The notes below the pieces were generated by a model, which saw nothing but the letters and a program-made list of their open reading frames with translations, made no database searches and had not been told where the DNA came from. A program made the position numbers and the translations under genes. A DNA stretch of 64,000 bases from Gammaproteobacteria bacterium (GTDB lineage Bacteria > Pseudomonadota > Gammaproteobacteria > Eutrophobiales > Eutrophobiaceae): the NCBI GenBank assembly GCA_965215365.1, contig CBDCDS010000003.1:1024001-1088000 (forward strand), in the 5' to 3' direction. Of this stretch, positions 41,222-60,238 are shown piece by piece. Numbering within the stretch: the first letter of the stretch is position 1; every line of letters starts with the position of its first letter.

Positions 41222-43431
41222 ATTGCATCTCTGTTTGCGGCAACCATGCGTTCCGGCGCGTTATCGCTGCGATTGACCGGCAACCTGATGATGACACAGG
41301 CGCCCGGTTCGTTTTCATTGTTGTTAATCATGACCAGACCGCCATGTTCTTCGATAATTTTCTTCACAATGGCCAACCCCAGGCCAGTGCCTTTCTGCTT
41401 GGTCGTCACGTAGGGTTCAAACACAGCCGACATTATATCCTTGTTTAGTCCACTTCCGGTATCCCGGATGCGAATTTCCACATAATCCATGGTCGTCCGG
41501 CTGATCTGGGCGGTGGAGATTAACACAGATAGAGGTTCTTGCGGGCGGCCTGCATCCAGCGCGTTCGTGATGACGTTGTTGAAAACCTGCCGCAGGCGCT
41601 CCGGGTCGGCGCTGAGCACCGCCAGCTCCCGGCTCAGGCTGAGGCTGATGCTGGCGTTGTTGTCCATGTTGTTATAGAGGTCGGCGACTTCCTCCAGCAG
41701 GCTGTTGACATCCACCGCACGCGGTGTCATGACCGGCGCCCTGGCATAATCGGAAAAGGCGCTCACCATGCCTTTCATGGTTTCCACTTGGTTGATGATG
41801 GTGTTGGTGAGCCGGTTCAGCGTCTTGGCCTGGTCCGGGGGTGAGCTATCGAGATATTTGTGGCGCAGGCGTTCCGCGGCCAGTTGTATGGGGGTCAGCG
41901 GATTCCTGATTTCGTGCGCCAGCCGCCGTGCCATCTCGCTCCAGGCCGCATCCCGCTGACCTTGCAGCAAGGCCGTGATGTCATCGAATACGACGATATG
42001 CACCGGTGCCTGTTCCTGCGCCGGCACCACGGAAGTGCCCCTGCAGATAAGCACCTGGCGCCCGCTGGCACCGAACAGGATAACCTGTCGCTCCCACACA
42101 TGTTCCACTTGATCGGACTGGGTGTTGATCAGTTCATGCAGGGGTTCCAGATGGTTATAGCGTGAGCAGATTTGCTCTAACGGCTGCCCGATAATCTTGC
42201 CGAGATCGAGCCCGAGGATGCGCCCGCCGCTGATGTTGATGGTGCGCAGGCAGTTTGCCGCATCCAGCACCAGCACGCCCGAAGATAACCGTTCCAGCAC
42301 CGCTTCTAGGTATTTTTGCTGGGTTTCCGCCTCGTCCTGACTGTATCTGGCCGCATCCCTGGCGTTGGCAATCTTGCGGGTCATGTCGTTGAAGGACACC
42401 ACCAGAAAGCCCAGCTCATCACTGCCTGATACCGGCAGTCTGGTGTGGTAATCGCCTTCGGCCACGGCGCGGGTGCCTTCCGCCAGATCGCGAATCGGCG
42501 CCGCCAGCCGCCGGGCGGAATAAAATGCGGCCCAGACTGCGGAGAACATGCTGAACAGGAATACCATGGTCAGGATCAGGATAAAACTCAACTTGAGCTG
42601 TTCTCTCAGGTAAGACAGTTCCTCGTACTCGGTAAACGCCGACTGCACGCTTTGCGCGAGTTCGTTAACCCGTGCGGTGACCGGGTACAGGGCATGCAGG
42701 ATGCGCGGGCCCACACCGAAGGTGTAATTGGGCAGGTTGACTACGACCCGGAAGGACAATCCAGCGTTTCTGATGGTGTCCATGCCGATATAACTGTTGC
42801 CTTGCAAAACCTGGAACAGGACGCTGTCGGCGGGCGCTTCCGGCACCAGATTATCCGGGTTGGCTGAGCTGTAACCGATAATAATCCCCTGTCTGGTCAG
42901 GACGGTCAGTTCATCGGCACCGCTGCGGCCGCGCAGGCGATCGACTTCAAGGGGAATCGATGCGTCCGGGGTGCGTGCAATATATTCCGCCATTTCCTCA
43001 GACTGCCTGAGCAGTTCCTTCATGCGATTCTCAAGGCCGAGCTGGCTCAATTCCAGCGAGTCCTCCAGCGCTTGTTCTATGCGCAAATCGAACCAACTGT
43101 CGATGCCCCGGTATAGAAAATCCAGGGAGAAGTAGTAGAGGATGAGGATTGGCGCGACCGACAGGATCGCGAACATAGTGACCATGCGCACCGTCAGACG
43201 GGCACCGGCAATGCGTTGCCGGGCCTGTTTGATCAGGCCGCGGATATTCAGGCCGATTAAAATGACCAGGGCCAGCAGGCCCAGAGTGTTGAAAATTAAC
43301 AGGCCGGTATAGAATTCATCGAACTGCGCCGGGTTCTGCAGGGCTTGGCTCAGGATTAACAACGATGCCAGCATGCACACGAACAACAGCACGCCCAGCA
43401 GCAGTATCAAACGTCCGCCACCCGCTTTCAT
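41218..43431 (-). CDS. ntrY: NtrY-like sensor histidine kinase (HAMP-PAS-HisKA)
   Basis: AWSEMARRLAHEIRNPLTPIQL, FEPYVTTK, GTGLGL. Confidence 0.82.
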   Translation of the reverse strand: MKAGGGRLILLLGVLLFVCMLASLLILSQALQNPAQFDEFYTGLLIFNTLGLLALVILIGLNIRGLIKQARQRIAGARLTVRMVTMFAILSVAPILILYYFSLDFLYRGIDSWFDLRIEQALEDSLELSQLGLENRMKELLRQSEEMAEYIARTPDASIPLEVDRLRGRSGADELTVLTRQGIIIGYSSANPDNLVPEAPADSVLFQVLQGNSYIGMDTIRNAGLSFRVVVNLPNYTFGVGPRILHALYPVTARVNELAQSVQSAFTEYEELSYLREQLKLSFILILTMVFLFSMFSAVWAAFYSARRLAAPIRDLAEGTRAVAEGDYHTRLPVSGSDELGFLVVSFNDMTRKIANARDAARYSQDEAETQQKYLEAVLERLSSGVLVLDAANCLRTINISGGRILGLDLGKIIGQPLEQICSRYNHLEPLHELINTQSDQVEHVWERQVILFGASGRQVLICRGTSVVPAQEQAPVHIVVFDDITALLQGQRDAAWSEMARRLAHEIRNPLTPIQLAAERLRHKYLDSSPPDQAKTLNRLTNTIINQVETMKGMVSAFSDYARAPVMTPRAVDVNSLLEEVADLYNNMDNNASISLSLSRELAVLSADPERLRQVFNNVITNALDAGRPQEPLSVLISTAQISRTTMDYVEIRIRDTGSGLNKDIMSAVFEPYVTTKQKGTGLGLAIVKKIIEEHGGLVMINNNENEPGACVIIRLPVNRSDNAPERMVAANRDAM

Positions 43432-43982
43432 TGCTCGAGCATCCATCTGTGCCAGCCGCTCTCCGCTTGCCACTTGTTCACCAGGAAGGCCACCGGTTTC
43501 ATCGGCGGCGGCAGGTTTGTTACATTTATCACACCCTTGAGCGCGGCGCGCAACCTGGTCCCGCGCCTGAGTTCCGCAGCGCCCAACAGCAGGTACCGGT
43601 CGAGCCTGCCCATGTATTTCAGCGCGTTTTCCAGGGTGTCAAACTGGCGCTGCTCGGCTTTGCTGACGGTGGTAACGATATATACATCCGACAACGGCAA
43701 GTAGTCCAGCCGGTATTTTATCCGGGCCTCCCGGTACAGCCGGTCGCGCCACCACCGGCGCTGTTCCCTGACCCTGATGATAATGCGCACATCCAGTTCC
43801 ACACCGTGGTCCAGTGCCTCCCGCAAGTCCTCATCCAGGTTAAAATTGATACGCGCATTGATGTAATAATCGCCTGCCACCCGCTCGGAGGAGACCGCAT
43901 CCACAACGATCCCGCCCGCCGCCGCGTGCAGGTCGGCACTGAGCAGCACCAGCAAAAACAGGGTGACGTATGCTGTTTTCAT
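43428..43982 (-). CDS. DUF4390 domain protein
   Basis: Signal peptide, LREALDHGV, LPPPMKP; conserved position upstream of ntrY. Confidence 0.8.
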   Translation of the reverse strand: MKTAYVTLFLLVLLSADLHAAAGGIVVDAVSSERVAGDYYINARINFNLDEDLREALDHGVELDVRIIIRVREQRRWWRDRLYREARIKYRLDYLPLSDVYIVTTVSKAEQRQFDTLENALKYMGRLDRYLLLGAAELRRGTRLRAALKGVINVTNLPPPMKPVAFLVNKWQAESGWHRWMLEQ

Positions 43983-44157: not shown

Positions 44158-44208
44158 TTGTTTCTCCCGGTTTAATCTACACGGGGGAAGGTCTGGTTTA
44201 CTCAGACT

Positions 44209-44220
44209 GGCAAGCTTGCT
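44209..44220. promoter_or_regulatory. Candidate operator palindrome upstream of cas6
   Basis: GGCAAGCTTGCT preceded by TTTACTCA; same motif at 46538 and 55339. Confidence 0.5.
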
Positions 44221-44294
44221 GTTGGTAGCCATATCAGGGCAATGCTGTATGATCGGGATGGTAATCAGGATCCTATACTTCCTGATATCCCATT

Positions 44295-45305
44295 ATGACA
44301 GTTTCCACCAGACACAGAACTGAGGCACGCAGCAACCGGGAGGCCGCCGGCAACACCGCGTCGTTGGGTGAGATTAAACTGCCTCTGGCCTGTTATCGTT
44401 TCCGGTTGCGTGCGCGGGAGACGATGCGCTTGCCGGATTATTCTGGATCCGCTTGGCGGGGGGCGTTCGGCAACAGCTTGAAAAAGCTGGTATGTATCAC
44501 CCGCGAACCACAATGTGAGCCTTGCTTGCTGTATCGCAACTGTATTTATCCTTATGTCTTTGAAACACCGCCTGACCCGAGCACAGGCAAACTGCGGAAA
44601 TACAATGCTGCGCCGCATCCGTTTGTACTACGCCCCGGAACCACCCTGAGAGGATATCTGCACCCGGATACCGAACACAACTTGTACCTGACGCTGTTCG
44701 GTCGCGGCAATAACCACCTTCCTTATATCATACACGCACTGGAGCGAGCGACCCAACGAGGCCTGGGCAAGCATAAAGGCAAATTTGATTTGCTGGAATT
44801 GCAACAATATCAGGCTGACGACTGGCGCGGGGTCTATACCCCCGGCGGTGAATTACAGCATCACGCCGCGACTTATGTGGATACGCCGGATTGTCCGGCG
44901 CGCATGACTCTTGAGTTTTTTACACCGATGCGCTGCAAGACTGAAGGTCACTTGGTGACACCGGAACGTTTTACCTTTAAGACGCTGTTCTCCTCCTTGT
45001 TAAGACGGCTGTCCTTGCTCACCACGTTTCATACCGATACCCCGCTGGCAACCGATTTCAAAGGGCTGACCCAGGCCGCCGGAGAAATACCCACGGCACA
45101 CTCTGAGTTACGCTGGCATGACTGGACCCGTTATTCCAGTCGCCAGGACACTCTGATGCAGTTGGGAGGCCTGTCAGGTACGGTAAGCTTCGAAAGCAGC
45201 GAGCTGGCCGTTTTCTGGCCCTACCTGTGGTTGGGACAATGGACTCATGCCGGTAAAAACACCAGCATGGGGCTGGGTAAATATAAAATCACCAACAGGT
45301 ACTGA
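44295..45305 (+). CDS. cas6: CRISPR pre-crRNA processing endoribonuclease Cas6
   Basis: GSAWRGAFG, CxxC..C motif, WTRYSSRQ, C-terminal G-rich loop HAGKNTSMGLGKY. Confidence 0.9.
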   Translation: MTVSTRHRTEARSNREAAGNTASLGEIKLPLACYRFRLRARETMRLPDYSGSAWRGAFGNSLKKLVCITREPQCEPCLLYRNCIYPYVFETPPDPSTGKLRKYNAAPHPFVLRPGTTLRGYLHPDTEHNLYLTLFGRGNNHLPYIIHALERATQRGLGKHKGKFDLLELQQYQADDWRGVYTPGGELQHHAATYVDTPDCPARMTLEFFTPMRCKTEGHLVTPERFTFKTLFSSLLRRLSLLTTFHTDTPLATDFKGLTQAAGEIPTAHSELRWHDWTRYSSRQDTLMQLGGLSGTVSFESSELAVFWPYLWLGQWTHAGKNTSMGLGKYKITNRY

Positions 45306-45317
45306 GCGGTGTCTGTG

Positions 45318-46562
45318 ATGAATGATATTGCCACAAAAACCAGGCCATCCTGCTCTCCGGCTGATTTCAAACGACGCATATTGCTGTGTGTAGCCGGTTT
45401 GTCCCCCCAGGTCATTACGGAAACGCTGTATGAACTGGTCACGCGCAAGGACCGGTTTATCCCAACCTGCATTTACGTCATTACTACGCGCGAGGGCGCA
45501 CACCGGATACGTCTCAACTTGCTGGAACCGGACCCGAACGAACAACATTTTCACCGGCTTTGCGCCGAACTGGATATCGATCCGGAAAGCATCGCGTTCC
45601 ATATTGATACCATCTGTCGAAACAGCCCCCCTACATCTGTCGGTATACCTGCTATCGGGGTCAGTCAGACAGCGCTGGCATCGGACATCGCAGTGCTGGA
45701 CGATATCCGTAGCATCACCGACAATGAAATTGCCGCTGACGCCATTACCAGTACCGTGCGCACCCTGACGGCAGACCCGGAGGCAGCAATCCACGCATCC
45801 ATCGCCGGCGGGCGCAAAACCATGGGTTTCTACCTGGGCTATACGCTGAGCCTGTTCGGACGGGAGCAGGACCGCCTGTCTCACGTTCTGGTATCGCCCC
45901 CATTTGAAGCGCATCCGCAATTTTACTATCCCCCGCAAAGCCCCAAGGTACTGCGTGACCGGGACAACCGGCCCATACACACCGGGGACGCCAGCATCAC
46001 ACTAGCTGATATTCCGTTCGTGCGTTTGCGCGGGCACTTGGACAGCAGCATCCTGGGTGAGGGCATAAGCTATTCAGAGACCGTCGCCCGCACCCAGCGC
46101 AATGTCAATCCGCCACACTTGGAACTGGATACAGCGAGCAAGTTGATAGATTGTGGCGGCTGTCGCGTTGAGCTGTCACCTAGCCTGTTTGCGTTTTATG
46201 CCTGGTTTGCACGCCGTCTGCTGGCAGGCAGGCCGGGAGTCCACTGGGCTCAGCCTGACGCCGCGCAAGAATACCTTGCCGAATATGCCCGAGTGGTCGG
46301 TGATTGCAGTGGCGACTACGAAAACGCGTGTAAAAGCCTGCAGCGGGGTATGGACCAGTCGTTTTATGAGCCGAAGATCAGTAAAATTAACCGTCGGCTT
46401 GAAAATATGCTCGGCAAGGGGCCGGCAAGACCGTATCTGCTGAGTAATATCGGCACGGTTCCCGGCACGCGTTATCGGCTTAAAGGGTTGACGTTGAAAC
46501 ATGAACAGGTACATTCGCAGGGAGAGCATATTCTATCGGCAAGCTTGCCACAGATAACATGA
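45318..46562 (+). CDS. CARF domain protein, NE0113/TIGR02584 family, with C-terminal winged-HTH
   Basis: ILLCVAGLSPQVITETLY, SIAGGRKTMG CARF motifs, LSHVLV; C-terminal LELD..GGCRVELSP...ISKINRRL resembles an OmpR-type wHTH. Confidence 0.8.
   Translation: MNDIATKTRPSCSPADFKRRILLCVAGLSPQVITETLYELVTRKDRFIPTCIYVITTREGAHRIRLNLLEPDPNEQHFHRLCAELDIDPESIAFHIDTICRNSPPTSVGIPAIGVSQTALASDIAVLDDIRSITDNEIAADAITSTVRTLTADPEAAIHASIAGGRKTMGFYLGYTLSLFGREQDRLSHVLVSPPFEAHPQFYYPPQSPKVLRDRDNRPIHTGDASITLADIPFVRLRGHLDSSILGEGISYSETVARTQRNVNPPHLELDTASKLIDCGGCRVELSPSLFAFYAWFARRLLAGRPGVHWAQPDAAQEYLAEYARVVGDCSGDYENACKSLQRGMDQSFYEPKISKINRRLENMLGKGPARPYLLSNIGTVPGTRYRLKGLTLKHEQVHSQGEHILSASLPQIT
46538..46549. promoter_or_regulatory. 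Candidate operator palindrome upstream of cas10
   Basis: Perfect GGCAAGCTTGCC about 60 bp before the cas10 ATG. Confidence 0.5.
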
Positions 46563-46610
46563 CAGAGTTGTTGTAGTAATATCACTGTGTGAATAATAAA
46601 ACCGCCTGCT

Positions 46611-49286
46611 ATGTCAGAACCATCCACTCTCATAACACCATCTGCACGCGTAGCGCTGGCTGCTTTTTTGCATGATCTTGGCAAGTTTGCTGAGCGGGCA
46701 AAAATTGACGCTTCTGACGAGCTTATCGAGAATAATAAGCAGCTTTATTGTCCCTATCACCAGGAAGGCAAGTGGTTCTCTCACGTACATGCGGCTTACA
46801 CTGCTATTGCTATGGATGAGATTGAATCCTATCTGCCACCCTTGAAAGGCCATGATGTAGCGCCTTTCGCAGCATGGAGCGCAGCTCAGGTGGATGACTC
46901 ACTTATCAATGGGGCTGCTAAACATCACAAACCGGAGACGTTTCTGCAGTGGGTTATTGCCACCGCTGATCGCGTGGCATCAGGTTTCGAACGTAATGAG
47001 TTTGAACAGTACAACAAGGCGAGAGAAGGCACAAAAGCCGGAAAAAACCATTACACAGCCCGCCAGTTGACCTTGTTCGAGCAGATAAGGCTGGAACACA
47101 AGAACAGACAACAGGAATATCAGTATCGTTACAAACTCAAGCCGCTTTGTCCTGACGCGCTGGCGCCTGTATCAGCACGGGATTATGAACCTGTCGATGA
47201 TGATGTGGCGCAAAGGGAGTACCGGGAGCTCTGGGATGGCTTCGTCGATGGGCTGAAAAAAATACCTGAAGCTCACAGGAAAAATCTGCCGTTGTGGTTG
47301 GGACATTTTGAGTCTTTATGGGCCTGTTTTACTCACGCCATCCCATCTGCCACGGCGTTCAACACCCGCCCGGATGTCTCACTTTACGATCATTCCCGTA
47401 CTACGGCAGCCCTGGCAGTGGCCATCTGGCGTTATCACCGCGAGCACGCGCATGATGAAGCTGAAGTGGTCCGGCGCACGAGTAAGCGAGATGATTGGGA
47501 TGAGAAAAAGTTATTGCTTATCCAGGGGGATTTTTTCGGAATCCAGAATTTCATTTTTGCGAGTGGCGGGGAAACCCAAAAGCGCGCCGCCAAGCTGTTG
47601 CGAGGGCGGTCGTTCTATGTGTCGTTACTGATGGAATGTGCGGCATTGAAAGTGCTCGATCTTTTGGGCTTGCCGGCGACCAGCCAGATCATCAACGCCG
47701 CGGGAAAATTCCTGATTGTTGCACCGAATACCGAAGCCGTGCAGGAGGAGTTGGCTCAAATCCAACAGGAGTTAGACCGGTGGTTCAAGGAACACACCTG
47801 GGCTGCCTCAGGGATTGGCCTTGCGTCGCTGCCGGCTTGTTGTAACGATTTCCTGAAACGCTCGGGGTCAGGTAATGAACCAGCCCCGTTTCAGCAACTG
47901 ATGGACAAGCTGTTTGCAAAGCTGGAGCAGGCTAAACTGCAACGTTTTGACCTGTGCAGTCAGACGCAGGAGTCGGCTGTTTTCAGCAGTTTTTTTAAGC
48001 AGTTTCAACCTGACAAGGGTGTTTGTCGGATCGATGGCAAATCACCGGCCACGCGCCAGGACGAGAATGATAGCGAGGTGTTCCTGAGTGATCTGGCGCA
48101 TGACCAGATTCGAGTTGGAGAATGTCTTACCCGGTACGAGCGTATATTGGTCACACGTTCAAACATCGACCACCATACCCTGCAGCTACCTGTGTTCGGG
48201 TATTTTGTCAGCTTCACTAGGGACGAAGAGATAACCGGCAGGTTCAGTAAACTGGCGGTGGATGGAGACCTTTTACAAGCCTTCGACTTCTCTCTACCTG
48301 AGTCCGGGGGCGCGCCTCTCTGGAACGGCTATGCCAGAAGGCAAATTAACGGTTCCGTGCCCAGGTTTCAGGATTCCGATCTGGAGCATCCGCACAAGTA
48401 CCGGGGAGTGGATGAGCCAGCCAGGATTGGCGAGGTAAAGACATTGAGTCACATTGCCTGTGAGGATGCAGGAGTTGAGGCATTGATGACTCTGAAAGGT
48501 GATGTGGATAATCTTGGACAGATATTCAAAGAAGGGCTGGTGCATCCGGGCGTGGAGGGGATGACCTTTGCCAAAATGGCAGCTTTGTCACGGCAAATGG
48601 ACGCTTTTTTCACAATATATCTGCCTTATCGATGTCGGCAGGATTATCCTGATACCTATACGGTATTCGCTGGTGGGGATGATTTTTTCCTGATCGGGCC
48701 TTGGCATTCGCAGCTCGGTCTGGCCCGGAAAATGCGATACTGGTTCAGTGAGTATGTTGCCCATAACCGCGAAGTGCATTTTTCGATTGGCCTGACCATG
48801 ACCAAGCCCGGGTTGCCAATACGCCACTTGGCAGCTCAGTCTGAACATGCTTTAGAAGCAGCCAAAGGGCATAATCTCCGAGCAGTAAAACCGGCGCCAA
48901 AGAATGCCGTTACCTGTTTCGGACACAGCGTTGGCTGGAATGAGTTCGAGGCGCTGATGGAAAATGTCAGCGCCTTGGAGATGTTGGCTGAAAAGATAAG
49001 GCTCAGTACAGGTTACCTGTATGGCCTGTTGCAGTTAACGGACATGCGGGCAGAAATTGATAAAAAACTGGAAAATGCCTTATGGCGCGCCTGGTTTGCT
49101 TATCGCACCAAGCGGATGCTTGAACGTGACCATGGTCTGGATGAGGAGCAACGACAGGAATATCAGAGTACATTAGCTGCAACCATCGCAGAAAATGGGA
49201 TACAAAAGCACAAACGAGCATACAAAATTGCCTTGTTTACCTATCTCTATCAACATCGTGGGGAAGAGGTTCTAATACATGAATAG
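46611..49286 (+). CDS. cas10: Type III-A Cas10/Csm1
   Basis: HD nuclease LHDLGKF, VSLYDHSR, LLRGRSF, KGDVDNLG and AGGDDFF palm motifs are intact. Confidence 0.96.
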   Translation: MSEPSTLITPSARVALAAFLHDLGKFAERAKIDASDELIENNKQLYCPYHQEGKWFSHVHAAYTAIAMDEIESYLPPLKGHDVAPFAAWSAAQVDDSLINGAAKHHKPETFLQWVIATADRVASGFERNEFEQYNKAREGTKAGKNHYTARQLTLFEQIRLEHKNRQQEYQYRYKLKPLCPDALAPVSARDYEPVDDDVAQREYRELWDGFVDGLKKIPEAHRKNLPLWLGHFESLWACFTHAIPSATAFNTRPDVSLYDHSRTTAALAVAIWRYHREHAHDEAEVVRRTSKRDDWDEKKLLLIQGDFFGIQNFIFASGGETQKRAAKLLRGRSFYVSLLMECAALKVLDLLGLPATSQIINAAGKFLIVAPNTEAVQEELAQIQQELDRWFKEHTWAASGIGLASLPACCNDFLKRSGSGNEPAPFQQLMDKLFAKLEQAKLQRFDLCSQTQESAVFSSFFKQFQPDKGVCRIDGKSPATRQDENDSEVFLSDLAHDQIRVGECLTRYERILVTRSNIDHHTLQLPVFGYFVSFTRDEEITGRFSKLAVDGDLLQAFDFSLPESGGAPLWNGYARRQINGSVPRFQDSDLEHPHKYRGVDEPARIGEVKTLSHIACEDAGVEALMTLKGDVDNLGQIFKEGLVHPGVEGMTFAKMAALSRQMDAFFTIYLPYRCRQDYPDTYTVFAGGDDFFLIGPWHSQLGLARKMRYWFSEYVAHNREVHFSIGLTMTKPGLPIRHLAAQSEHALEAAKGHNLRAVKPAPKNAVTCFGHSVGWNEFEALMENVSALEMLAEKIRLSTGYLYGLLQLTDMRAEIDKKLENALWRAWFAYRTKRMLERDHGLDEEQRQEYQSTLAATIAENGIQKHKRAYKIALFTYLYQHRGEEVLIHE

Positions 49287-49773
49287 TAAGAGACATCACA
49301 GCAACGAAAGCCAACAACACAGGCAGCACGGTGGGACACAATCCCGGTCAGGATTCCCTTTTGAAATAGAGCGTATCGCGCTTGCAGAGGATGAATTAAT
49401 GTCGGATATGTTCAGCAGTGTTGCGGAAGATGCCGCAAAACACGTAGCCGAATGGGATGAGCAGAGCAAGGAAGCAGGGAAGCAAGCCAGCAAATCGACA
49501 CAGTTGCGTAAGTTCTACGATGAGATTTGTATGTGGCACAGCAAGGTTCAAGATGATAGCGCGTGTCTGCAAAAAAACTTGCCTTTGATACTGATGTTGA
49601 AAGCAAAAGTTGCTTATTCGGAAGGTCGTAAACATGTAAACAAAGCCTATGTAAACGTCTTAAACCGTTGCTTGGATCAACTGCAAGCAAGAGCAGAGCC
49701 ACGAACACTTCAAAATCTGAAATTATTCATGGAGGCCTTTACCGGTTTTTACAAGGTTTACGGCCCAAAATAA
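49279..49773 (+). CDS. csm2: Type III-A small subunit Csm2
   Basis: STQLRKFYDE, KAKVAY, FMEAFTGFYK. Confidence 0.92.
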   Translation: MNSKRHHSNESQQHRQHGGTQSRSGFPFEIERIALAEDELMSDMFSSVAEDAAKHVAEWDEQSKEAGKQASKSTQLRKFYDEICMWHSKVQDDSACLQKNLPLILMLKAKVAYSEGRKHVNKAYVNVLNRCLDQLQARAEPRTLQNLKLFMEAFTGFYKVYGPK

Positions 49774-49788
49774 TCGGGAGATACCAAG

Positions 49789-50511
49789 ATGCAACTTACA
49801 GCAATCAGAATAATCACTGGAGAAATAGAGCTACTCAGCGGCTTACATATCGGTGGTGGCGATGCCGATATGCACATCGGTGGTATCGATAACGCAGTGA
49901 TCAAACATCCGGTTACACAGCAACCGTATATTCCCGGTTCCAGTATCAAGGGTAAAATGCGCAGTCTGCTGGAATGGGAGTTGGGAGTGGTTGGCCATAC
50001 GCAGGGGAAGCCACTCAGTTTCAGCCACGTTGAAAAGCTGGAAGACGACCAACAAGAAGGCGCTAAAATCATGCTGAAACTTTTTGGCGGCGCCCCCGAC
50101 AATAATGTACAACACCTAGTTAAGGAAATCGGCCCCACCCGTCTGGCTTTTTGGGACTGCTCCCTCGACACTGATTGGGTCAAGGAAATGGAAGACAGGA
50201 ATCTCCTGTTAACGGAGGCCAAGATGGAAAACTCCATCGACCGTATTCGTGGTGTGGCTGAGAACCCGCGTCAGACAGAGCGCGTGCCCGCCGGCGCGAA
50301 ATTCTGTTTCAAACTGAGCCTGCGTCAGCATGAAGGCGACGGCAACCTGATGGAGGTAATCCTCAAGGGGCTGCGTCTGATAGAGCTTTCCGGACTCGGA
50401 GGGTCAGGTTCGCGCGGTTACGGCAAGGTCAGGTTCAATAAGCTGGCCTGTGAAAACGAGTCTCTTGAAGAGCATATGAAAACTATTGATCCGTTTCTTT
50501 CTACGGACTGA
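49789..50511 (+). CDS. csm3: Type III-A RAMP Csm3
   Basis: GLHIG, IGGIDN (catalytic Asp), PYIPGSSIKGKMRSLLE, LGGSGSRGYG. Confidence 0.95.
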   Translation: MQLTAIRIITGEIELLSGLHIGGGDADMHIGGIDNAVIKHPVTQQPYIPGSSIKGKMRSLLEWELGVVGHTQGKPLSFSHVEKLEDDQQEGAKIMLKLFGGAPDNNVQHLVKEIGPTRLAFWDCSLDTDWVKEMEDRNLLLTEAKMENSIDRIRGVAENPRQTERVPAGAKFCFKLSLRQHEGDGNLMEVILKGLRLIELSGLGGSGSRGYGKVRFNKLACENESLEEHMKTIDPFLSTD

Positions 50512-50522
50512 TCGATATACCT

Positions 50523-51512
50523 GTGAAGCGCTATTGTATCACCGTCGAGCCGGAATCCGCTTTCGGCACGCCGCTAAAAGGCGACACCTTGTTTGGTCAA
50601 CTGTGTTGGGCGATTTTGAACCGGCACGGTCAGGAGCACCTGGAAGTATTATTGGGCGATTATTCGAGACGGCCCTTCGCTGTTTGTTCGGACGGTTTCC
50701 CCAACGCCTATTTACCGCGCCCATCCCTGCCTGTTTCCTGTTTCAGTCTCCCGCAAGGTGAGGATTACAAAGCTATCAAGAAAAGACTCTGGATACCTAT
50801 GGATACATTGGACGCTCCGGTCCCACAGTGGTTACACACTGCCAAATCGGACAGTGAACTGCCAGTCAAACCGGGCGTGAGCAAAGCACAACGCCAGAAT
50901 ACGCAAAAACCGACATGGGAACATTATCAGCCCCAACCACATAACAGCATTAACCGCCTGACCGGCACGACTGGCGAGGGCATGTTTGCCCCGTACAGTC
51001 AGCAGCAAATCTGGTATTGGCCAGGCAGTAGCCTCAATGTGTACCTGTTGCTTGATGAGACGCAATTATCCCTGCAGGAGGTCCGGACGTTGCTATGTGA
51101 TATCGGTGTTTTTGGTTATGGTCGCGACGCAAGTATCGGGCTTGGAAAATTCAGGTTGACTGATTGTGTCGAAGCGGAATTTAACGCGCCTGAAAATGCG
51201 AATGCCTGCCTGACGTTGGCGCCATGCGCCCCGCAAGGGATGGGCATGGATGGCCGCCACAGCTACTACAACACTGTTACTCGTTTCGGTCGTCACGGCG
51301 ATGTTGGCGTGCATGGGGCGCATGGTCCTTTCAAAGCGCCGGTACTATTGGCCGACACTGGCGCAGTATTTACCCCAGTCAAGGAAGGTCAAACCCGCAT
51401 CGGCCAGGCTCTTGGCGGACTCTCAAAGACGATTCCGGGCACAGTACACCAAGGCTATGCGCCCTGCGTCCCCATCTACCTGCCGCCAAAGACACAGCAG
51501 GTGATAACGTGA
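50523..51512 (+). CDS. csm4: Type III-A RAMP Csm4
   Basis: GDTLFGQLCW, SDGFP, HNSINRLTG, GYGRDASIGLGKF. Confidence 0.9.
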   Translation: MKRYCITVEPESAFGTPLKGDTLFGQLCWAILNRHGQEHLEVLLGDYSRRPFAVCSDGFPNAYLPRPSLPVSCFSLPQGEDYKAIKKRLWIPMDTLDAPVPQWLHTAKSDSELPVKPGVSKAQRQNTQKPTWEHYQPQPHNSINRLTGTTGEGMFAPYSQQQIWYWPGSSLNVYLLLDETQLSLQEVRTLLCDIGVFGYGRDASIGLGKFRLTDCVEAEFNAPENANACLTLAPCAPQGMGMDGRHSYYNTVTRFGRHGDVGVHGAHGPFKAPVLLADTGAVFTPVKEGQTRIGQALGGLSKTIPGTVHQGYAPCVPIYLPPKTQQVIT

Positions 51513-53140
51513 AATTTTTAGACGAGCATCATCTGGCAATTACCCTGCTGACACCGGTGCATATCGGTTGTGGTGAAGACTACACGCCGACTGATTACGT
51601 GATTGATGACGATGCCCTGTTTGCCTTTGACAGTGCTGGAATCATCAATGCGTTTTCGGAAACGGCCAGAATACAATTATCAAGGCTGGTCAGCGGCGCT
51701 GTAAAACCGGATGCTCTGATAAATATTCAAAAATTATTCTATGAGCAGCGCGAAGCTCTGATTGCAAAGGCCAGTCACTATCTTCCCGTTGCTGACGGAA
51801 TAATCGAGCTTTATCGAAAAAGCATAGGCAAGGCAGCCCAGCTGGAAAGTAAGGGAAAAAGAGTGGCAAATCGCTTGGAGATGGAACGCACGTTTTACAA
51901 TCCTGTCGACCAGAAACCTGTTATTCCGGGCAGCAGTTTGAAAGGAGCCATCCGGACGGCCTTGCTTAATTCGATAAACCAAGGCAACCCGCTCCGGCTC
52001 AATGAGAAAAACAGAAAATTACAAGGGCGATTGTTTCAATACGACAAGTTTGAAAATGACCCAATGCGGCTGGTGCATTTGGCTGACACGACGCATGACA
52101 GTGATGACATTGTTCATACTGAAATCCGATTTGCAACCAACCACCCCCGGCAGGAACCGAAACGGCCAAGGGGAAAGCAAACGCAGGCGGAAGCTAAAGG
52201 TCCGTATCAACTGTTGGAAATCTTGTCCGGGTTTGGTCCACGCCAATATCGTAGTCGATTAACTGTTCATAGTGTTGAACAAATACGACAAAACCACAGT
52301 TTGCCAAAAGTTGAACTTCGTTGGACAATCAAACAAATTGTGCAGGCCTGCAATGATTTTTATCTCCCGTTGCTGGAACAGGAATTGAAAATTATCAAAG
52401 AGAGGCGATATGCATCTCCCGATTGGGAACAGCAAATGGATGACCTCCTACCCAAAATCCGGCCCGTGCTCAAATCCAATCAGGCCATGGTATTACGCAT
52501 AGGACGCCATAGTGGCGCCGAAGCAGTAACTCTGAATGGTGTGCGGAGCATAAAAATCATGCAGGGAAGAGAGAAACCGAAGTTCAAAGACAAACCACAA
52601 ACCTTATGGTTGGCGGCCAATGCCCAAGACGCCCGTGCACAGATGCTTCCGTTCGGTTGGATTCTGGTTGAAATAAACCCTGCGGAAACGGTGCCGGCAG
52701 CATTGAGGAATTTTGCCGGTAAAACCAGTGACTCCAAGCAGAACTGGTTAAAAAAACAACAATGTCGAATTGCAGATTTACAGGACAAAATTACCCGTAA
52801 AGAGCAACAGGCTCAAGCCGAACAGCAAGCGGAGATTGATCGGCAAAGAGTGGATGCGGAAAAACAAGCGCGTTTGGCCTCCATGAGTAATGAAAAACGG
52901 GCTATCGAGGAGTTACGGGAGCAGTTCACGAAAGCCCAGGCATCCCAGACCTTGACTGCTCAAAGCGTAGTGCCCGATGAGTTAGCCAAGCTGCTCAAAC
53001 AGGCAAGTCAGTGGCCTGAGCGAGAGCGGACAGCCCTGTGCGATTTGGCAGAAGAAATCTACAAACCTCTGGGCATGTTGCGGGGGAAGAAAGGTAAAAA
53101 CCGCAAGACGATAATCCAACAATTAAAAGGACTGAGCTGA
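51509..53140 (+). CDS. csm5: Type III-A RAMP Csm5 with C-terminal coiled-coil extension
   Basis: LTPVHIGCG, IPGSSLKGAIRTA, LRIGRHSG, PFGW; GTG start overlapping the csm4 stop. Confidence 0.9.
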   Translation: MKFLDEHHLAITLLTPVHIGCGEDYTPTDYVIDDDALFAFDSAGIINAFSETARIQLSRLVSGAVKPDALINIQKLFYEQREALIAKASHYLPVADGIIELYRKSIGKAAQLESKGKRVANRLEMERTFYNPVDQKPVIPGSSLKGAIRTALLNSINQGNPLRLNEKNRKLQGRLFQYDKFENDPMRLVHLADTTHDSDDIVHTEIRFATNHPRQEPKRPRGKQTQAEAKGPYQLLEILSGFGPRQYRSRLTVHSVEQIRQNHSLPKVELRWTIKQIVQACNDFYLPLLEQELKIIKERRYASPDWEQQMDDLLPKIRPVLKSNQAMVLRIGRHSGAEAVTLNGVRSIKIMQGREKPKFKDKPQTLWLAANAQDARAQMLPFGWILVEINPAETVPAALRNFAGKTSDSKQNWLKKQQCRIADLQDKITRKEQQAQAEQQAEIDRQRVDAEKQARLASMSNEKRAIEELREQFTKAQASQTLTAQSVVPDELAKLLKQASQWPERERTALCDLAEEIYKPLGMLRGKKGKNRKTIIQQLKGLS

Positions 53141-53424
53141 TGCACCCGTTAATCGAGAAGCATCGCGCTGATATACTCGCTTTGGCTGAGCAGTACGGGA
53201 TTGAAAACGTGCGCGTGTTCGGTTCTATGGCAAGAGGCGATGCCGGGGATACCAGCGATGTGGACCTGTTGGTTTTTCTTCCAAAGGGCCAGAGCGCATT
53301 GGCTCTGGGGGGGCTGCTCATGGATGTTCAGGATTTGTTAAAGCGACATGTAGATGTAGTATCAGAACGAGGTCTGCACCCGATGCTGCGAGAGAACATA
53401 CTCAAGGAGGCAGTACCTCTGTGA
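53140..53424 (+). CDS. Minimal nucleotidyltransferase (MNT) antitoxin
   Basis: VFGSMARGD..SDVDLLV, VDVV. Confidence 0.9.
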   Translation: MHPLIEKHRADILALAEQYGIENVRVFGSMARGDAGDTSDVDLLVFLPKGQSALALGGLLMDVQDLLKRHVDVVSERGLHPMLRENILKEAVPL

Positions 53425-53783
53425 CCCCTACTTCGGAGTCTGATCGATTGATGCTGATGCACATACTTGATTGCATACAGCAGATCTGGGAATATACTGA
53501 AAACAGCCGGGAGGCGTTTTTTGGCTCACAAATGGTGCAGGATGCAACTGTACGTAATCTGCAAGTGCTAGCTGAATCCACCCAGAGACTCAGTGAAGCC
53601 ATCAAGGCTACCCAACAGGATATTCCCTGGCGCAAAATTGCCGGTTTCCGCAATGTTCTTGTCCATAGTTACCTGAGCCTCGACCTTGAGGCAGTATGGT
53701 CTGTAGTTGAGCATAATCTGAAAGATTTGTCTGAGGCAGCGGAAGCAATGTTGCTTATGGCGGACAAGGACACCAAGCCTTGA
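53421..53783 (+). CDS. HEPN/DUF86 ribonuclease toxin
   Basis: QDATVRNL, IPWRKIAGFRNVLVHSY (Rx4H). Confidence 0.9.
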   Translation: MTPTSESDRLMLMHILDCIQQIWEYTENSREAFFGSQMVQDATVRNLQVLAESTQRLSEAIKATQQDIPWRKIAGFRNVLVHSYLSLDLEAVWSVVEHNLKDLSEAAEAMLLMADKDTKP

Positions 53784-53947
53784 CGATGAAACTAGTTAAA
53801 GCAGGGCCCGCCTTAGTGGTGCGACGCTCAGCCTATCTTCAAGACGCCATAGATCAGCGTACCTACAAAAAAACAAATGACAGCAGCCAGCGCAATGAAC
53901 TCGATCATATTTTTCCGACCTCTTTGTAATTGAAACACTGTGTTTCC

Positions 53948-55266
53948 ATGAACAAGAAAATCCTTGTCCAGACCGTCGGCGGTTCCCATGAACCGATTCT
54001 TACGTCTATAAAAGAGAACAAGCCTGATTTTATCTGTTTTTTCTGCTCTGGCAAAGACTTGGCGACAGGCAAGCCGGGCTCCGAGAAACAGATTACCGGG
54101 AGGGCAGTGTTATCAAAAAGAGCCCCGGGGATGACAGCCCCAGCCTCCCCAATATTCCTACGTTGGCAGGCCTTGAGAAGGACCAATACGAGGTAGTCAT
54201 CATTCCTGCCGATGAGCCGGATGCAGCATTCAAAAAAATATCCGAGCGTTTGCACAAATTGATATCGCAACATCCGGGGGCTGCTTTTATTGCCGATTAC
54301 ACCGGCGGCACTAAATCGATGACCGCTGCTCTGGTACTGGCAGCAGTGGAACACAGAGAGGTTACCCTGCAACTGGTTACTGGCAATCGAGTCAACTTGC
54401 ATGGTGTGGAATCCGGCATGGGGACAACCGGATTAATACCTATGGAAACCGTTCGTGTGCAGCGGGCCCTTACTCAATTCACCGAGTTCTGGCGCTATTT
54501 TTCCTATGGTGAAGCAGCACGAGGCCTAGTCAACATTAAACCTGCCAAGCCCGGGTTGAAACGCAAGCTAAGAGTATTACTGGATTTAAGCAAGGCCTTT
54601 GGCGCTTGGGACCGGTTTGACCATCAGCAGGCACATAACATCATCGGCAATTATGGCAAGCTGATCGCACCGGCCCATCAGCATCTTCTGAACTCATTAA
54701 CAAATCTTACAACGAAATCAGACCGGCAAACCCTCGGCCTGTTGTGGGACTTGTGGTTCAACGCTTTGCGCCGCGCTGAGCAGGGACGTTATGATGATGC
54801 GGTTGCTCGCTTGTATCGCCTGTTGGAGTGGACTGCACAGTGGATTTTGCAGGTCAATTGCGGTGTCGACAAGACTGGTGATATTCCAGCAGACAAAATA
54901 CCCTCCAGCATGTCCTTACAAGCAAACCCGAAAGGCCAATACCAGGCTGGCCTGCTCAAGGCATGGGAACTGGTCGGCCATCATCACCCGGACAAGAATA
55001 GTGCGGCTTTCCAATTCAGTAAGTGTAAGTTGAAGGCGATGCAGACACAGCTTGAGAAGCGGAACTACTCCATACTGGCTCACGGCTTCAGTCCCATCAG
55101 CGAGGAAGACTGGCGTGCCTTCAGAAACTGGATGAAAGAAAATTTTCTACCCATGCTGAAAATGGAAACGCAGGGAGCCGGGCTAAAAACAATCCCGCAG
55201 CAACTGCCGCAGCGCACTTGGCCAGAGATAGAGCAAATGGATAACATTGCCGACAGTTTCAACTGA
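53948..55266 (+). pseudogene. TIGR02710-like CARF-HEPN CRISPR effector split by a 1-bp frameshift near 54098
   Basis: TVGGSHEPI N-terminus in one frame; ADYTGGTKSMTAAL, GRYDDAVARLYR and RNYSILAHG in another; adding one G at GGG 54098-54100 gives continuous TGEGSVIKK..LPNIPTLAGL. Confidence 0.78.
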
Positions 55267-55336
55267 GTTACGGAGTCCGGGAAATGCTCCCATAACGGCG
55301 TGGATTGGAACAAGTGTGGCAACTTGATCTTTACTC

Positions 55337-55352
55337 ACGGCAAGCTTGCCGT
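55337..55352. promoter_or_regulatory. Candidate operator palindrome upstream of cas2-cas1
   Basis: Perfect 16-bp ACGGCAAGCTTGCCGT, adjoining an upstream TTTACTCA. Confidence 0.55.
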
Positions 55353-55377: not shown

Positions 55378-55671
55378 TTGACTCCCAATGTGAAACGCCG
55401 ACTCTACCTTGCAGCCTACGACATCAGCAGCGCCAGTCGACTGCGGGCCGCACTGTATTTTCTGAAAGGGTTCGCCAGCGGTCGCCAGAAGTCTGTGTTT
55501 GAGTGCTTCCTGACAATGCCGGAACGCAAGGAGTTGGTAACAGGCATCAGTAACATCATTGAGCCGGACGAGGATCGTTTTTTATTGTTACCGCTGGCTT
55601 ATGGTGCCGGCATCGAAACTTTAGGCAGGGGTGTGGCACCGTCAGATGAATCCTATTACTACATAGGGTGA
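55378..55671 (+). CDS. cas2: CRISPR-associated Cas2 (first copy)
   Basis: YLAAYDI, QKSVFEC, ED motif. Confidence 0.88.
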   Translation: MTPNVKRRLYLAAYDISSASRLRAALYFLKGFASGRQKSVFECFLTMPERKELVTGISNIIEPDEDRFLLLPLAYGAGIETLGRGVAPSDESYYYIG

Positions 55672-56642
55672 ACAGTATGCTGACCCTGTTCATTGACCGT
55701 AAAAACCTGAAACTGGAACTCGATAATAAATGCCTTTTGGTGCGCCCACCCGGCGCTGTGGTTCAAAGCCTGCCCTTGAATATACTGGACCGTGTTGTCA
55801 TCCGCAGTCAGGTTGCCTTGGATAGTCGCCTGTTGGGAGCCTTGGGGCAGCACAACATTGGTCTGAGTATCATGTACGGCCGCAACGGTCGCCAACATTT
55901 GCAATTATTCAGTCCGGGACACAATGATGCGCGGCGTCGACTTGCCCAGTATGCGCTTTGGAACGATACGCAACGCCGCCTCGACTGGAGTCGCCACCTG
56001 GTGGATGCGAAAGTCTGCGCCCAACGAAGGCTTCTGGAGTACGCGCGTGCACGCCGCCCGGACTTGCGTCATCGACTCACCACCGCTCTGAAAAGTCTGA
56101 ACAATATTATGCCTTCTATTGACAAGGCCACCGACATTGAGGTTTTGCGCGGCCTGGAAGGTTCATCGGCAGCCGTTTACTTCACTGGTTTTCAAAACCT
56201 TTTTGCCGACGGCCTGACATTCACCGGGCGTAACCGACGCCCGCCACGAGATCCGGTTAATGCCTGCCTGTCCTTGGTATATACCATGATCCACAATGAA
56301 GCTGTGCGCGCCTGTCATGGCGCAGGACTGGACCCCTTGCTGGGTTTTTACCATGAACCGGCTTACGGTCGTGAATCCCTGGCCTGTGACATTATTGAAC
56401 CCCTGCGCCCACGGGTTGATCATTGGGTCTGGCAATTGTTTCGCAAGCGTTTGTTAAGAGAAGATAATTTCAGCCGTGAGGGTGGGAGTTGCCTGCTTAA
56501 CAAAAGCGGGCGCAGGATCTTTTTTGAGGGATATGAAACCGAAGCCACACCGTGGCGCCGTTACTTTCGTTTGCAAAGCTATCGCATGGCACGCGCCCTG
56601 TTACAACTTGCTCCGGACTTGCCTGAACTGGAGAGCTCGTGA
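55668..56642 (+). CDS. cas1: CRISPR-associated endonuclease Cas1
   Basis: LRGLEG (E), RNRRPPRDPVNACLS, GFYH (H), SLACDIIEP (D/E). Confidence 0.95.
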   Translation: MNSMLTLFIDRKNLKLELDNKCLLVRPPGAVVQSLPLNILDRVVIRSQVALDSRLLGALGQHNIGLSIMYGRNGRQHLQLFSPGHNDARRRLAQYALWNDTQRRLDWSRHLVDAKVCAQRRLLEYARARRPDLRHRLTTALKSLNNIMPSIDKATDIEVLRGLEGSSAAVYFTGFQNLFADGLTFTGRNRRPPRDPVNACLSLVYTMIHNEAVRACHGAGLDPLLGFYHEPAYGRESLACDIIEPLRPRVDHWVWQLFRKRLLREDNFSREGGSCLLNKSGRRIFFEGYETEATPWRRYFRLQSYRMARALLQLAPDLPELESS

Positions 56643-57904: not shown

Positions 57905-60238
57905 GTTTGAACCGCAGACCTGATTAAGAAGGGATTAAGACCCGGTGGAGCACGAAAAACAAAACTCGCCCATCATGGTTTGAACCGCAGACCTGATTAA
58001 GAAGGGATTAAGACAAAGGTTGGCGTCGATGAGGTCGGCGTGGCTCAAGTGTTTGAACCGCAGACCTGATTAAGAAGGGATTAAGACCCCAGATTGGCGC
58101 CTTCTAGGTTGGCGGCGCTCAGGTCGTTTGAACCGCAGACCTGATTAAGAAGGGATTAAGACCAGCGCATGATCGACTATTTCGATCATGCGCTGTTCGT
58201 TTGAACCGCAGACCTGATTAAGAAGGGATTAAGACATTGTGCGCTGGGGGTATGATATAATTGCGATGTTTGAACCGCAGACCTGATTAAGAAGGGATTA
58301 AGACCAAGTTGGCGCCGGTGAGGTCGGCGTCTTCCAAGTTGTTTGAACCGCAGACCTGATTAAGAAGGGATTAAGACGGTGAGGTTGGCGCGTTTCAGGT
58401 TGGCGCCATCTAGGTTTGAACCGCAGACCTGATTAAGAAGGGATTAAGACTCACATAACCTGTGGTGATCAGGTTATGTTCTTCTGTTTGAACCGCAGAC
58501 CTGATTAAGAAGGGATTAAGACTTTCAATCATGCGCTGCTCTTCGGAAAGCCTAGCTGTTTGAACCGCAGACCTGATTAAGAAGGGATTAAGACCGCTAA
58601 TTTGTGGTTTAAGAAAAAAGTCATGGTGACGTTTGAACCGCAGACCTGATTAAGAAGGGATTAAGACCATACAGCTTGTCTCCCTTTTTGACGTATTGGT
58701 TGTTTGAACCGCAGACCTGATTAAGAAGGGATTAAGACCAGCAGCGCTTGATCGACTATTTCAATCATGCGCTGCGTTTGAACCGCAGACCTGATTAAGA
58801 AGGGATTAAGACCCTTCTTTAACTCGGCTTGCCATTCCCGCCGAGGTTTGAACCGCAGACCTGATTAAGAAGGGATTAAGACTTCCTTGAACAAAACATT
58901 CCCCCACATCAGGCTGTTTGAACCGCAGACCTGATTAAGAAGGGATTAAGACGGCGCCTGTCAGGTTGGCGCCTTCCAACTTGGTTTGAACCGCAGACCT
59001 GATTAAGAAGGGATTAAGACTGATGGGCTTCCCGAATTTATCGCTCAAGTAGTCTAAAGTTTGAACCGCAGACCTGATTAAGAAGGGATTAAGACTCTTG
59101 GCGCCGGCGAGTTTGGCGTCTTCCAACTTGGTTTGAACCGCAGACCTGATTAAGAAGGGATTAAGACAATAGGGCGGAATTTAAGGCCGCCGGATTTTTG
59201 GGTTTGAACCGCAGACCTGATTAAGAAGGGATTAAGACTTGGCGCAGTAGAGGTTGGTGCCTTCCATCTTGTTTGAACCGCAGACCTGATTAAGAAGGGA
59301 TTAAGACGCTTCTTTACGATCTTCTTTGCTTCTTTTTTGCTGTGTTTGAACCGCAGACCTGATTAAGAAGGGATTAAGACGCGCCGAATGCAATGGAGAT
59401 TCTCGCGAATCACGATCAGTTTGAACCGCAGACCTGATTAAGAAGGGATTAAGACGCTCCTCGTAGTCCATCCTGTCGTCGATTTTGGTCGTTTGAACCG
59501 CAGACCTGATTAAGAAGGGATTAAGACGTACGCTGTTGGCTCCCTACTTCTGCCTGTGACGCCGTTTGAACCGCAGACCTGATTAAGAAGGGATTAAGAC
59601 AAAAAAGCGCCAAGCGCAAATCTACCGAAACTGAAGAGTTTGAACCGCAGACCTGATTAAGAAGGGATTAAGACGCACAGCGCTGCCGATCCACCGATTG
59701 ATATGGTGGTGTTTGAACCGCAGACCTGATTAAGAAGGGATTAAGACTCATCATCATGTATAGGCCTTTTTTGTGTAATTATTGTTTGAACCGCAGACCT
59801 GATTAAGAAGGGATTAAGACGCCTCTGATTGTTGCGCCTCAACCTGATCATTGGTTTGAACCGCAGACCTGATTAAGAAGGGATTAAGACGACAGAATGT
59901 TACGTTTTCTAGTCGGGCAGCAACGTTTGAACCGCAGACCTGATTAAGAAGGGATTAAGACGAGGTCGGCGCCGTTCAGGTTGGCGCCAGTGAGGGTTGT
60001 TTGAACCGCAGACCTGATTAAGAAGGGATTAAGACTTGGTGATCCCGTTGATGTTGTTGCCGGACAAGGTTTGAACCGCAGACCTGATTAAGAAGGGATT
60101 AAGACATTAATGGGAAAAGTCAAGTGATTTTTCACCGCCGAAGTTTGAACCGCAGACCTGATTAAGAAGGGATTAAGACGGCATCTCCTCTAGTAGGTTT
60201 TAAGTTAAATGGAAGGTTGAACCGCAGACCTGATTAAG
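57905..60238 (+). CRISPR. Type III CRISPR array: 32 identical 37-bp repeats + truncated terminal repeat, 32 spacers (31-38 bp)
   Basis: Repeat GTTTGAACCGCAGACCTGATTAAGAAGGGATTAAGAC; the 3' ATTAAGAC tag, leader position and degenerate last repeat all indicate + orientation. Confidence 0.99.

Follow-up and report, generated by a model that had tools for sequence, protein, structure and literature searches.

The closest characterised system to the one described here is archaeal. In the Sulfolobales, Csa3a, a protein in which a CARF domain is fused to a winged helix, is paired with CAPPa, a palindromic site just 5' of the core promoter; CAPPa lies 12 bp before the transcription factor B recognition element and TATA box (BRE/TATA), and Csa3 binds cyclic tetra-adenylate, cA4 (PMC8699464 and PMC8844856). 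The present analysis concerns a 64,000-nucleotide (nt) stretch of DNA, referred to as the window, from a Gammaproteobacteria bacterium of the Eutrophobiaceae (GenBank assembly GCA_965215365.1, contig CBDCDS010000003.1, positions 1,024,001 to 1,088,000 of the forward strand). It contains a CRISPR-Cas locus that is of subtype III-A by its Pfam and NCBIfam gene content, in which the same palindrome precedes three cas gene blocks and in which a CARF-winged-helix protein of the NE0113 family is encoded. The palindrome is probably the operator of this locus-encoded protein, which, judging from the site sequences and from structural models, would most likely be a class-II-like activator with cyclic oligoadenylate (cOA) as its probable ligand.

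The likeness to Csa3a extends to the co-occurrence of protein and motif, which is almost exact for Csa3a, and to a set of targets that includes adaptation genes. Csa3a differs in being archaeal, in belonging to type I-A and in its motif, TCCC-N8-GGGA, and Csa3Sso is described as having no ring-nuclease activity. In the window, by contrast, the winged helix is of the OmpR/PhoB type, and sites are found also before the type III interference genes and before cas6, with none in the array leader, where relaxed-core and leader scans found no palindrome. The window protein gave no match to TIGR01884 (Csa3) at E ≤ 0.001 and is not a member of Csa3 by that model. The resemblance to Csa3 is, by analogy, a functional likeness and not one of membership.

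The NE0113 family (TIGR02584, PF09623; CARF5--CARF in PADLOC), of which the window protein is a full-length member, has already been catalogued. Makarova et al. predicted in 2014 that the NE0113 and Csa3 families, which are without effector domains, are direct regulators of transcription (PMC4012209). Bacteria also link CARF or SAVED sensors to transcription in other ways: through CalpL-CalpT-CalpS, which acts by proteolysis of an anti-sigma factor, and through RtcR, a sigma-54 AAA+ protein that activates RNA repair genes (PMC11229360, PMC9650030 and PMC7790460). In neither case does one protein serve as a sensor-operator switch at cas promoters. No paper on an operator, a promoter layout or an experiment for the NE0113 family was found in a literature search that lay outside the supplements of the 2014 and 2020 classifications, and the papers containing the 10-mer core of the palindrome, among the matches listed, appear unrelated. 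What is new here is the coupling of the palindrome to a -10-like hexamer.

The palindrome and the element that follows it

An earlier reading of the window, made from the sequence alone and called here the sequence-only reading, had reported a palindrome, GGCAAGCTTGC(C/T), starting at 44209, 46538 and 55339, and had described the last copy as a perfect 16-mer. All three copies were found, none was found elsewhere in the window, and the 16-mer was seen at 55337-55352. The sites, the hexamers that follow them and the adjoining genes are these:

44209..44220, + strand: palindrome copy 1, GGCAAGCTTGCT (the 12-mer ending in T), 5' of cas6 and the NE0113 gene, by motif search
44248..44253, + strand: -10-like hexamer TATGAT, 27 nt past copy 1; predicted transcription start near 44260
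44295..45305, + strand: cas6 (PF10040, E 1.4e-19)
45318..46562, + strand: NE0113-family protein with a CARF domain and a predicted OmpR/PhoB-like winged helix (PF09623, TIGR02584, PADLOC, models)
46538..46549, + strand: palindrome copy 2, GGCAAGCTTGCC, 5' of cas10, by motif search
46577..46582, + strand: -10-like hexamer TAATAT, 27 nt past copy 2; predicted start near 46589
46611..49286, + strand: cas10/csm1 (TIGR02578, 692.8 bits), in which a motif search places HD at residue 21 and GGDD at residue 688
55337..55352, + strand: palindrome copy 3, the perfect 16-mer, 5' of cas2-cas1; its 12-mer part is 55339-55350
55378..55383, + strand: hexamer TTGACT, 27 nt past copy 3, where a -10 would lie; weak as a -10, predicted start near 55390
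55390-55671, + strand: cas2, likely start GTG 55390 (Pfam/NCBIfam); opens MKRRLYLAAYD, like the cas2 of homologues

Site 1 lies 74 nt 5' of the cas6 ATG at 44295, and a promoter scan reports TAGCCA-16-TATGAT at 44226-44253. Site 2 lies 61 nt 5' of the cas10 ATG at 46611, inside the final codons of the NE0113 open reading frame (ORF), and site 3 lies 39 nt 5' of the GTG at 55390. The form GGCAAGCTTGCY gave three matches in the 64-kb window and no others, compared with 0.04 expected, and none of 100 shuffles reached the observed count. Its 10-mer core, GCAAGCTTGC, is present in three copies in the whole genome (2,726,733 bases in 3 contigs, GC 0.579), and all three are at this locus, inside 11.2 kb and each ahead of a cas gene block; the chance of three copies all falling within 11.2 kb is about 1e-5 by our own arithmetic. 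The sequence-only reading had named a motif common genome-wide as an outcome against itself, and in this genome the motif is not common. When up to two mismatches were allowed there were 13 matches in the window compared with 5.5 expected, and the loose form is thus not special.

The site is also conserved in homologous loci. The sample comprised 80 loci encoding NE0113 relatives with 40-67% identity (one genome per species, 1.276 Mb in total) from the Nitrospirales, the Gamma-, Beta- and Alphaproteobacteria, the Acidobacteriota and a cyanobacterium. The exact 10-mer was found in 58 of these loci in a total of 102 copies. Ranked among the 1024 possible palindromic 10-mers it came first, ahead of a GC-only word with 27 copies. 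Among the 320 palindromes of the same composition the mean was 1.48 copies and the second highest count was 11. The consensus with its flanks was Y-S-GCAAGCTTGC-S-R, and 67 of the 102 sites were 12-mer palindromes and 42 were 14-mers. Their positions were stereotyped: just 5' of the NE0113 gene, after its stop codon (12 sites were 0-9 nt downstream of it), or before cas6, cas10 or cas2. Most of the 22 loci without the exact core had GACAAGCTTGYC, CACAAGCTTGTG or GGCAACCTTGCC at equivalent places, and CACAAGCTTGTG, GACAAGCTTGTC and GGCAACCTTGCC were found at the same promoter offset in such loci. Because these variants occupy the same places, they point to a family-wide core, RCAA-SS-TTGY, made up of two half-sites. 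A search with the relaxed core gave 193 sites, spread over 75 of the 80 loci. In the genome of the window it occurs at about 35 other places, none of which combines an AGCT centre, both G/C flanks and a -10.

The coupling of the palindrome to a -10-like element was counted over 105 exact sites, the 102 from the loci and the 3 from the window, with none dropped. On the cas strand, TANNNT followed the 12-mer after 27 nt at 38 sites, after 28 nt at 11 and after 26 nt at 2, a total of 51 of 105 compared with 1 of 105 in the mirror direction and with a background of 0.0044 per position. Hexamers with A at position 2 and T at position 6 were found at 92 of the 105 sites on the cas strand and at 4 of 105 in the mirror direction. 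No position in the interval between palindrome and hexamer exceeded 0.25 bit, and there is therefore no conserved -35 element. For the relaxed core followed by a -10-like element, there were 145 sites on the cas strand compared with 16 on the opposite one, and at least one such site was present in 72 of the 80 loci; the sequence-only reading had proposed a look for the motif in homologous NE0113 loci, and both its exact and its relaxed, promoter-type form are widespread there.

By their sequence and placement the hexamers would be used as promoter -10 elements. Were the hexamer a -10 occupying -12 to -7, the palindrome would cover approximately -51 to -40 and be centred at -45.5, which is the layout of a class-II-type activator: a fixed site just 5' of the -35 position, a -10 that is present and a -35 that is weak or absent. 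From the fixed, directional offset of a symmetric site and the lack of a -35 we infer an activator that contacts RNA polymerase, most likely one that is class-II-like. With a repressor, overlap with the start or with either promoter element (-35 or -10) would be expected more often. It is unlikely that the same protein at the same site is a repressor or a dual regulator, whose unliganded form blocks the promoters or read-through until it is released by cOA. Csa3b has been described as a repressor and OmpR-family proteins can repress, and site 2 and its relatives stand directly past the NE0113 stop (in the window, past the stop of the homologues), where a bound protein could also block read-through. 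However, about 27 nt separate the end of the site from the -10, so that the -10, the start and the would-be -35 are left uncovered, and a spacing that is constant within 1 nt in 49 of the 51 TANNNT cases, with no conserved -35, fits contact with RNA polymerase.

The same directional coupling bears on whether the palindrome might be a signal at the RNA level (a hairpin, or a processing or termination signal) or a recombination scar at the borders of the cas modules, either of which we regard as very improbable. The palindrome does stand at module borders and a short hairpin could form, but it is without a loop and would have at most 4-6 pairs around a 4-nt centre, and its sequence is invariant, not covarying. 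Since it lies 5' of the predicted -10, it would not be transcribed by its own promoter, and a scar would not be expected to show so strict a directional coupling with a -10.

At 8 of the 10 sites before cas2, the window counted, the start codon was 6-7 nt past the hexamer when examined by eye. The same layout of -10 and start is found in L001, L007, L043, L050, L051, L055 and L073, and in the window GTG 55390 follows after 6 nt. A start codon so close to the hexamer suggests that the cas2 transcripts are leaderless.

In about 10 type III-B loci the core was found within cmr3, 100-140 nt before the end of the gene and upstream of cmr4 (for example at L060:8883, L025:16681, L002:17164 and L028:6930). 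The embedded core always encodes (R/G)KLA, with CTT as the Leu codon, and the surrounding codons are divergent; a hexamer of the GAGAAT, GAAGAT or GAAAAT type is found at an equal offset past the core. An invariant CTT in a divergent coding context indicates selection on the DNA, and on this codon comparison the embedded site looks like an internal promoter kept by DNA-level selection.

Other readings of the sequence in and around the site were considered. The right half, TTGCCN, was rejected as a -35, as its spacer to the -10 would be 26 nt. A sigma-54 reading of TGGCA...TTGC was rejected as well, the GG-to-GC spacing being 3 nt too short for the sigma-54 consensus. The hexamer AAGCTT is found only 133 times in the 2.73-Mb genome, compared with about 450 from base composition (our arithmetic), which suggests past or present restriction pressure of the HindIII type; a link of the palindrome to HindIII-type restriction was rejected, as variants with a CC centre retain the half-sites and the -10 offset. 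The sequence-only reading had pointed, in addition, to TTTACTCA as an element shared upstream of two palindromes. It is indeed present at 44197-44204, 4 nt ahead of the palindrome, and at 55330-55337, 1 nt ahead, which is roughly -55 to -65 of the predicted promoters. A third copy lies at 47328, and three copies compare with 0.94 expected in the window, a count that 9 of 100 shuffles reach. It adjoins the palindrome in none of the 80 homologous loci and is not conserved.

The NE0113-family protein

The protein encoded between cas6 and cas10 matched TIGR02584 with 221.6 bits (cut-off 80.65) and PF09623 with 136.4 bits (cut-off 23), which places it in the NE0113 family, as the sequence-only reading had proposed. 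The PADLOC model CARF5--CARF matched residues 21-402 with E 5.2e-113; the label 'CARF5' rests on the names of PADLOC models and on two later papers. Approximately 6000 relatives were found at E ≤ 0.001 among 8000 scored candidates, and the best 120 relatives were all PF09623-positive and 277-446 residues long. Csm or Cmr genes were present in most of the 80 loci. In an alignment of the window protein with 34 of the best 120 relatives, conservation extended over the whole length, the last 150 residues included. The full-length model had a predicted local distance difference test score (pLDDT) of 86.4, with the CARF domain at approximately residues 21-265 and the winged helix at approximately 270-405.

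For the CARF half, the best structural matches in Foldseek were the CARF domain of Cad1 (9c77, 9c6a), Csm6, Can2 and the ring nucleases Sso2081 and Sis0455. Two pocket motifs, GLSPQ (G30-L31-S32-P33-Q34) and SIAGGRKT (S164-...-K170-T171), were invariant or nearly so in the 35 aligned sequences. S32, which was nearly invariant, and K170, which was invariant, correspond to the motif-I Ser/Thr and the motif-II Lys of CARF ring nucleases, an equivalence to the catalytic residues of solved enzymes that is drawn by motif and not residue by residue. Cad1, a CARF-adenosine deaminase of the CARF5 clade, is the described protein that the CARF domain resembles most, and it differs in that its output domain is a deaminase and not DNA-binding. 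Cad1 enzymes respond to cA4 or to cyclic hexa-adenylate (cA6), and the CARF domain of TaqCad1 cleaves cA4, with the motif-II lysine needed for binding (PMC12669630 and PMC12825302). By analogy with Cad1, S32 and K170 would be compatible with binding of the ligand and perhaps also with its cleavage. The NCBIfam product name of the family, 'ring nuclease Csm6', is a label only.

The C-terminal domain was also modelled alone, from the window sequence together with 44 of the 58 loci whose C-terminal region was complete. Its model had a pLDDT of 93.5. In VIA-align, a search independent of Foldseek, rows 1-23 were all DNA-binding domains of the OmpR/PhoB family, with Z from 9.6 to 6.0 over 77-100 residues; the best was BaeR (Z 9.6, root-mean-square deviation 3.0 over 100 residues), followed by GlnR, VanR, CadC, AdeR and PrrA. 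The top rows of Foldseek were from the same OmpR/PhoB family with weak E-values of 0.03-1. When a profile of the 45 C-terminal domains was compared with PDB sequences, the first match was RstA (E 7e-4), followed by PhoB, BasR and KdpE, and the other 23 listed rows were nearly all OmpR/PhoB proteins with E 0.001-1.9; the full-length profile had no match to PDB sequences at E ≤ 0.01.

The modelled fold consists of an N-terminal beta sheet, a helix, a helix-turn-helix and a C-terminal hairpin wing, with two extra helices inserted between helix 1 and the recognition helix. The C-terminal domain is thus, as modelled, an OmpR/PhoB winged-helix fold with two inserted helices, and the OmpR-like winged helix of the sequence-only reading is recovered in the structural comparison. 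It shares with the OmpR/PhoB response regulators (BaeR, GlnR, VanR, PhoB and RstA) the beta-sheet platform, the three helices and the wing. It differs from them in that there is no receiver domain but a CARF sensor, in the two inserted helices and in a putative site that is an inverted repeat; the OmpR/PhoB family typically binds direct repeats.

GTG 45309 is an alternative start of the ORF. At the other end, positions 46527-46562 run 11 codons beyond the stop of the homologues and through palindrome copy 2, giving a tail that ends in ...SASLPQIT. This 11-residue tail is absent from the relatives in the 35-sequence alignment, and the model is unconfident in it.

Other features of the locus

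The remaining genes of the locus follow in two groups, one after cas10 and one after cas2, and end in a CRISPR array:

49279-49773, + strand: csm2 (Pfam/NCBIfam)
49789-50511, + strand: csm3 (Pfam/NCBIfam)
50523-51512, + strand: csm4 (Pfam/NCBIfam)
inside 51224-53140, + strand: csm5, start uncertain (Pfam/NCBIfam)
53140..53783, + strand: pair of MNT nucleotidyltransferase and HepT, within the operon (PF01909, PF01934)
54163..55266, + strand: Csm6-like CARF-6H-HEPN protein with RNYSILAH at residue 300 (TIGR02710)
55668-56642, + strand: cas1 (Pfam/NCBIfam)
56639-57403, + strand: short cas1-like gene of 254 amino acids, matching the N-terminal part of Cas1 only
57400-57717, + strand: second cas2 (Pfam/NCBIfam)
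57905..60179, + strand: CRISPR array with 32 identical 37-nt repeats and 31 spacers, by array search

The MNT/HepT pair is encoded between csm5 and the Csm6-like gene, and close homologues of the pair were found in about 10 of the 80 related loci. At least 13 of the homologous loci, L007, L043, L050 and L073 among them, share the order cas2-cas1-cas2. About 8 of the 31 spacers (2, 3, 6, 7, 15, 17, 19 and 29) have a repetitive TTGGCGCC...AGGTTGGCG pattern that, from its sequence, looks like the antisense of DNA coding for pentapeptide repeats, and spacers 4, 9 and 12 overlap a single target. The shared pattern and the overlapping spacers indicate that several spacers share a target gene or are directed at related ones.

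Directly upstream of the cas locus, the minus strand from 39866 to 43473 carries a gene for an NtrY-like histidine kinase (41218-43473) and then an ORF of 451 amino acids (39866-41221). No link between this pair and the cas locus was seen.

Proposed regulation of type III loci

In the proposed mechanism, the NE0113 protein would bind as a two-fold symmetric CARF dimer, as expected from CARF proteins in general, with each winged helix on one half-site. At -45.5 it would recruit sigma-70 RNA polymerase in a class-II-like manner to promoters that have only a -10. Three promoters would respond: P(cas6-NE0113), which would amount to self-activation; P(cas10-csm...csm6), with MNT/HepT and csm6 downstream; and P(cas2-cas1...), whose transcript is probably leaderless. 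Cas10, whose GGDD (residue 688) is intact, as the sequence-only reading had stated, would make the cOA that is the probable ligand and would modulate the activity of the protein, and the CARF pocket, going by its motifs, may also cleave this ligand. The sequence-only reading had proposed a candidate CARF-winged-helix regulon. The in silico tests support such a regulon, and each of the outcomes that it had named as counting against itself, where these can be checked in silico, came out in its favour. The regulon had been left unspecified, and here the geometry of the sites points to activation.

Several observations weigh against this account, beginning with the frequency of the site in other genomes. 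From the window's class 400 genomes were sampled and searched, with tallies over 401, and TIGR02584 exceeded its cut-off in 39. Whole-genome counts discriminate weakly. The 12-mer flanked by S was found in 272 of the 401 genomes; there were 780 sites in total (150 + 1410 rows, halved as both strands were reported; our own count), which by hand sums is approximately 3.4 per genome in the 39 NE0113-positive genomes compared with approximately 1.8 in the rest. The core with a -10 was found in 205 of the 401 genomes, 30 of the 39 that are NE0113-positive and 175 of the 362 others, with 2.05 per genome in the former compared with 0.87 in the latter (hand sums), which is a separation of about two-fold. 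The 12-mer tally includes the unpublished genomes G141, G296 and G308, and the tally of core and -10 includes G141 and G308; no individual conclusion depends on these genomes.

The protein and the loci add further points on the same side. Eight of the 80 loci were without a promoter-type site, the hexamer that follows copy 3 in the window, TTGACT, makes a poor -10, and L100, which encodes a divergent NE0113 protein (29% identity), was without the site. Pfam Trans_reg_C gave no match to the window protein at E ≤ 0.01. Mutual information between site variants, classed by A or G at half-site position 2 and by a CC or GC centre, and the columns of the C-terminal domain gave no clear recognition-helix column; by eye, GRLAG(I/V)RK goes with GACAAG, RKSRVNS with CACAAG and KAHIK with the CC centre, in few and related lineages. 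For the archaeal parallel, cA4 was without effect on DNA binding by Csa3 in vitro (PMC8699464 and PMC8844856).

The exceptional feature is the local density of sites beside NE0113 genes and not their genome-wide rarity in the class. Density was approximately 76 per Mb in the NE0113 loci compared with approximately 0.7 per Mb in the class sample (our own arithmetic on different samples). In three III-A loci from genomes without a TIGR02584 match (L095-L097, 44.4 kb) there were no sites, and 5 of the 6 III-A loci of NE0113-positive genomes had 2-3 sites each with a -10 on the cas strand.

These counts also bear on the possibility that the palindrome is bound by another factor, whether a regulator of the host or a different protein encoded in the locus, and that the NE0113 protein is only a cOA sensor or a ring nuclease. 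Genomes of the class contain, as background, about 2 copies of the 12-mer each, and a further point against binding by the NE0113 protein is L098, a 6.4-kb contig that carries CGCAACGTTGCG with a -10, 97 nt before cas10, and for which an NE0113 gene was detected neither on the contig nor in the assembly. The NCBIfam name of the family, too, is that of a ring nuclease, and the binding of the NE0113 protein to the palindrome is something that we infer. Even so, this alternative seems distinctly improbable: gene order and partners vary among the loci and the NE0113 gene is the only constant neighbour of the site across III-A and III-B loci of several phyla, the palindromes flank the NE0113 gene itself, and the protein has a predicted DNA-binding fold that belongs to a family of about 6000 members and is conserved over its full length in the alignment of 35. 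Activation by the NE0113 protein at the palindrome is kept as the preferred reading.

The control of type III CRISPR expression in bacteria is poorly known, and a survey of type III loci in 2024 left transcription factors for 'future studies' (PMC11229360). With the present results a large catalogued family gains a candidate DNA site that is precisely defined, together with a promoter layout, predicted transcript starts and a defined set of putative target genes. The near-invariant site across phyla is in addition a handy marker for the annotation of promoters in type III loci, and a feedback of the cOA alarm on the transcription of bacterial cas genes becomes a directly testable idea. A broader generalisation can be put forward tentatively, as one that we hold possible but would not yet bet on: NE0113 proteins may be widespread cOA-gated activators of the class-II type in bacteria, with a built-in ring-nuclease timer, that switch on their own gene, CRISPR RNA processing, the Csm or Cmr effector and spacer acquisition, in type III-B through the promoter internal to cmr3, and that use one nearly invariant operator across phyla. 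If this is true, type III immunity would be both self-amplifying and self-limiting at the level of transcription.

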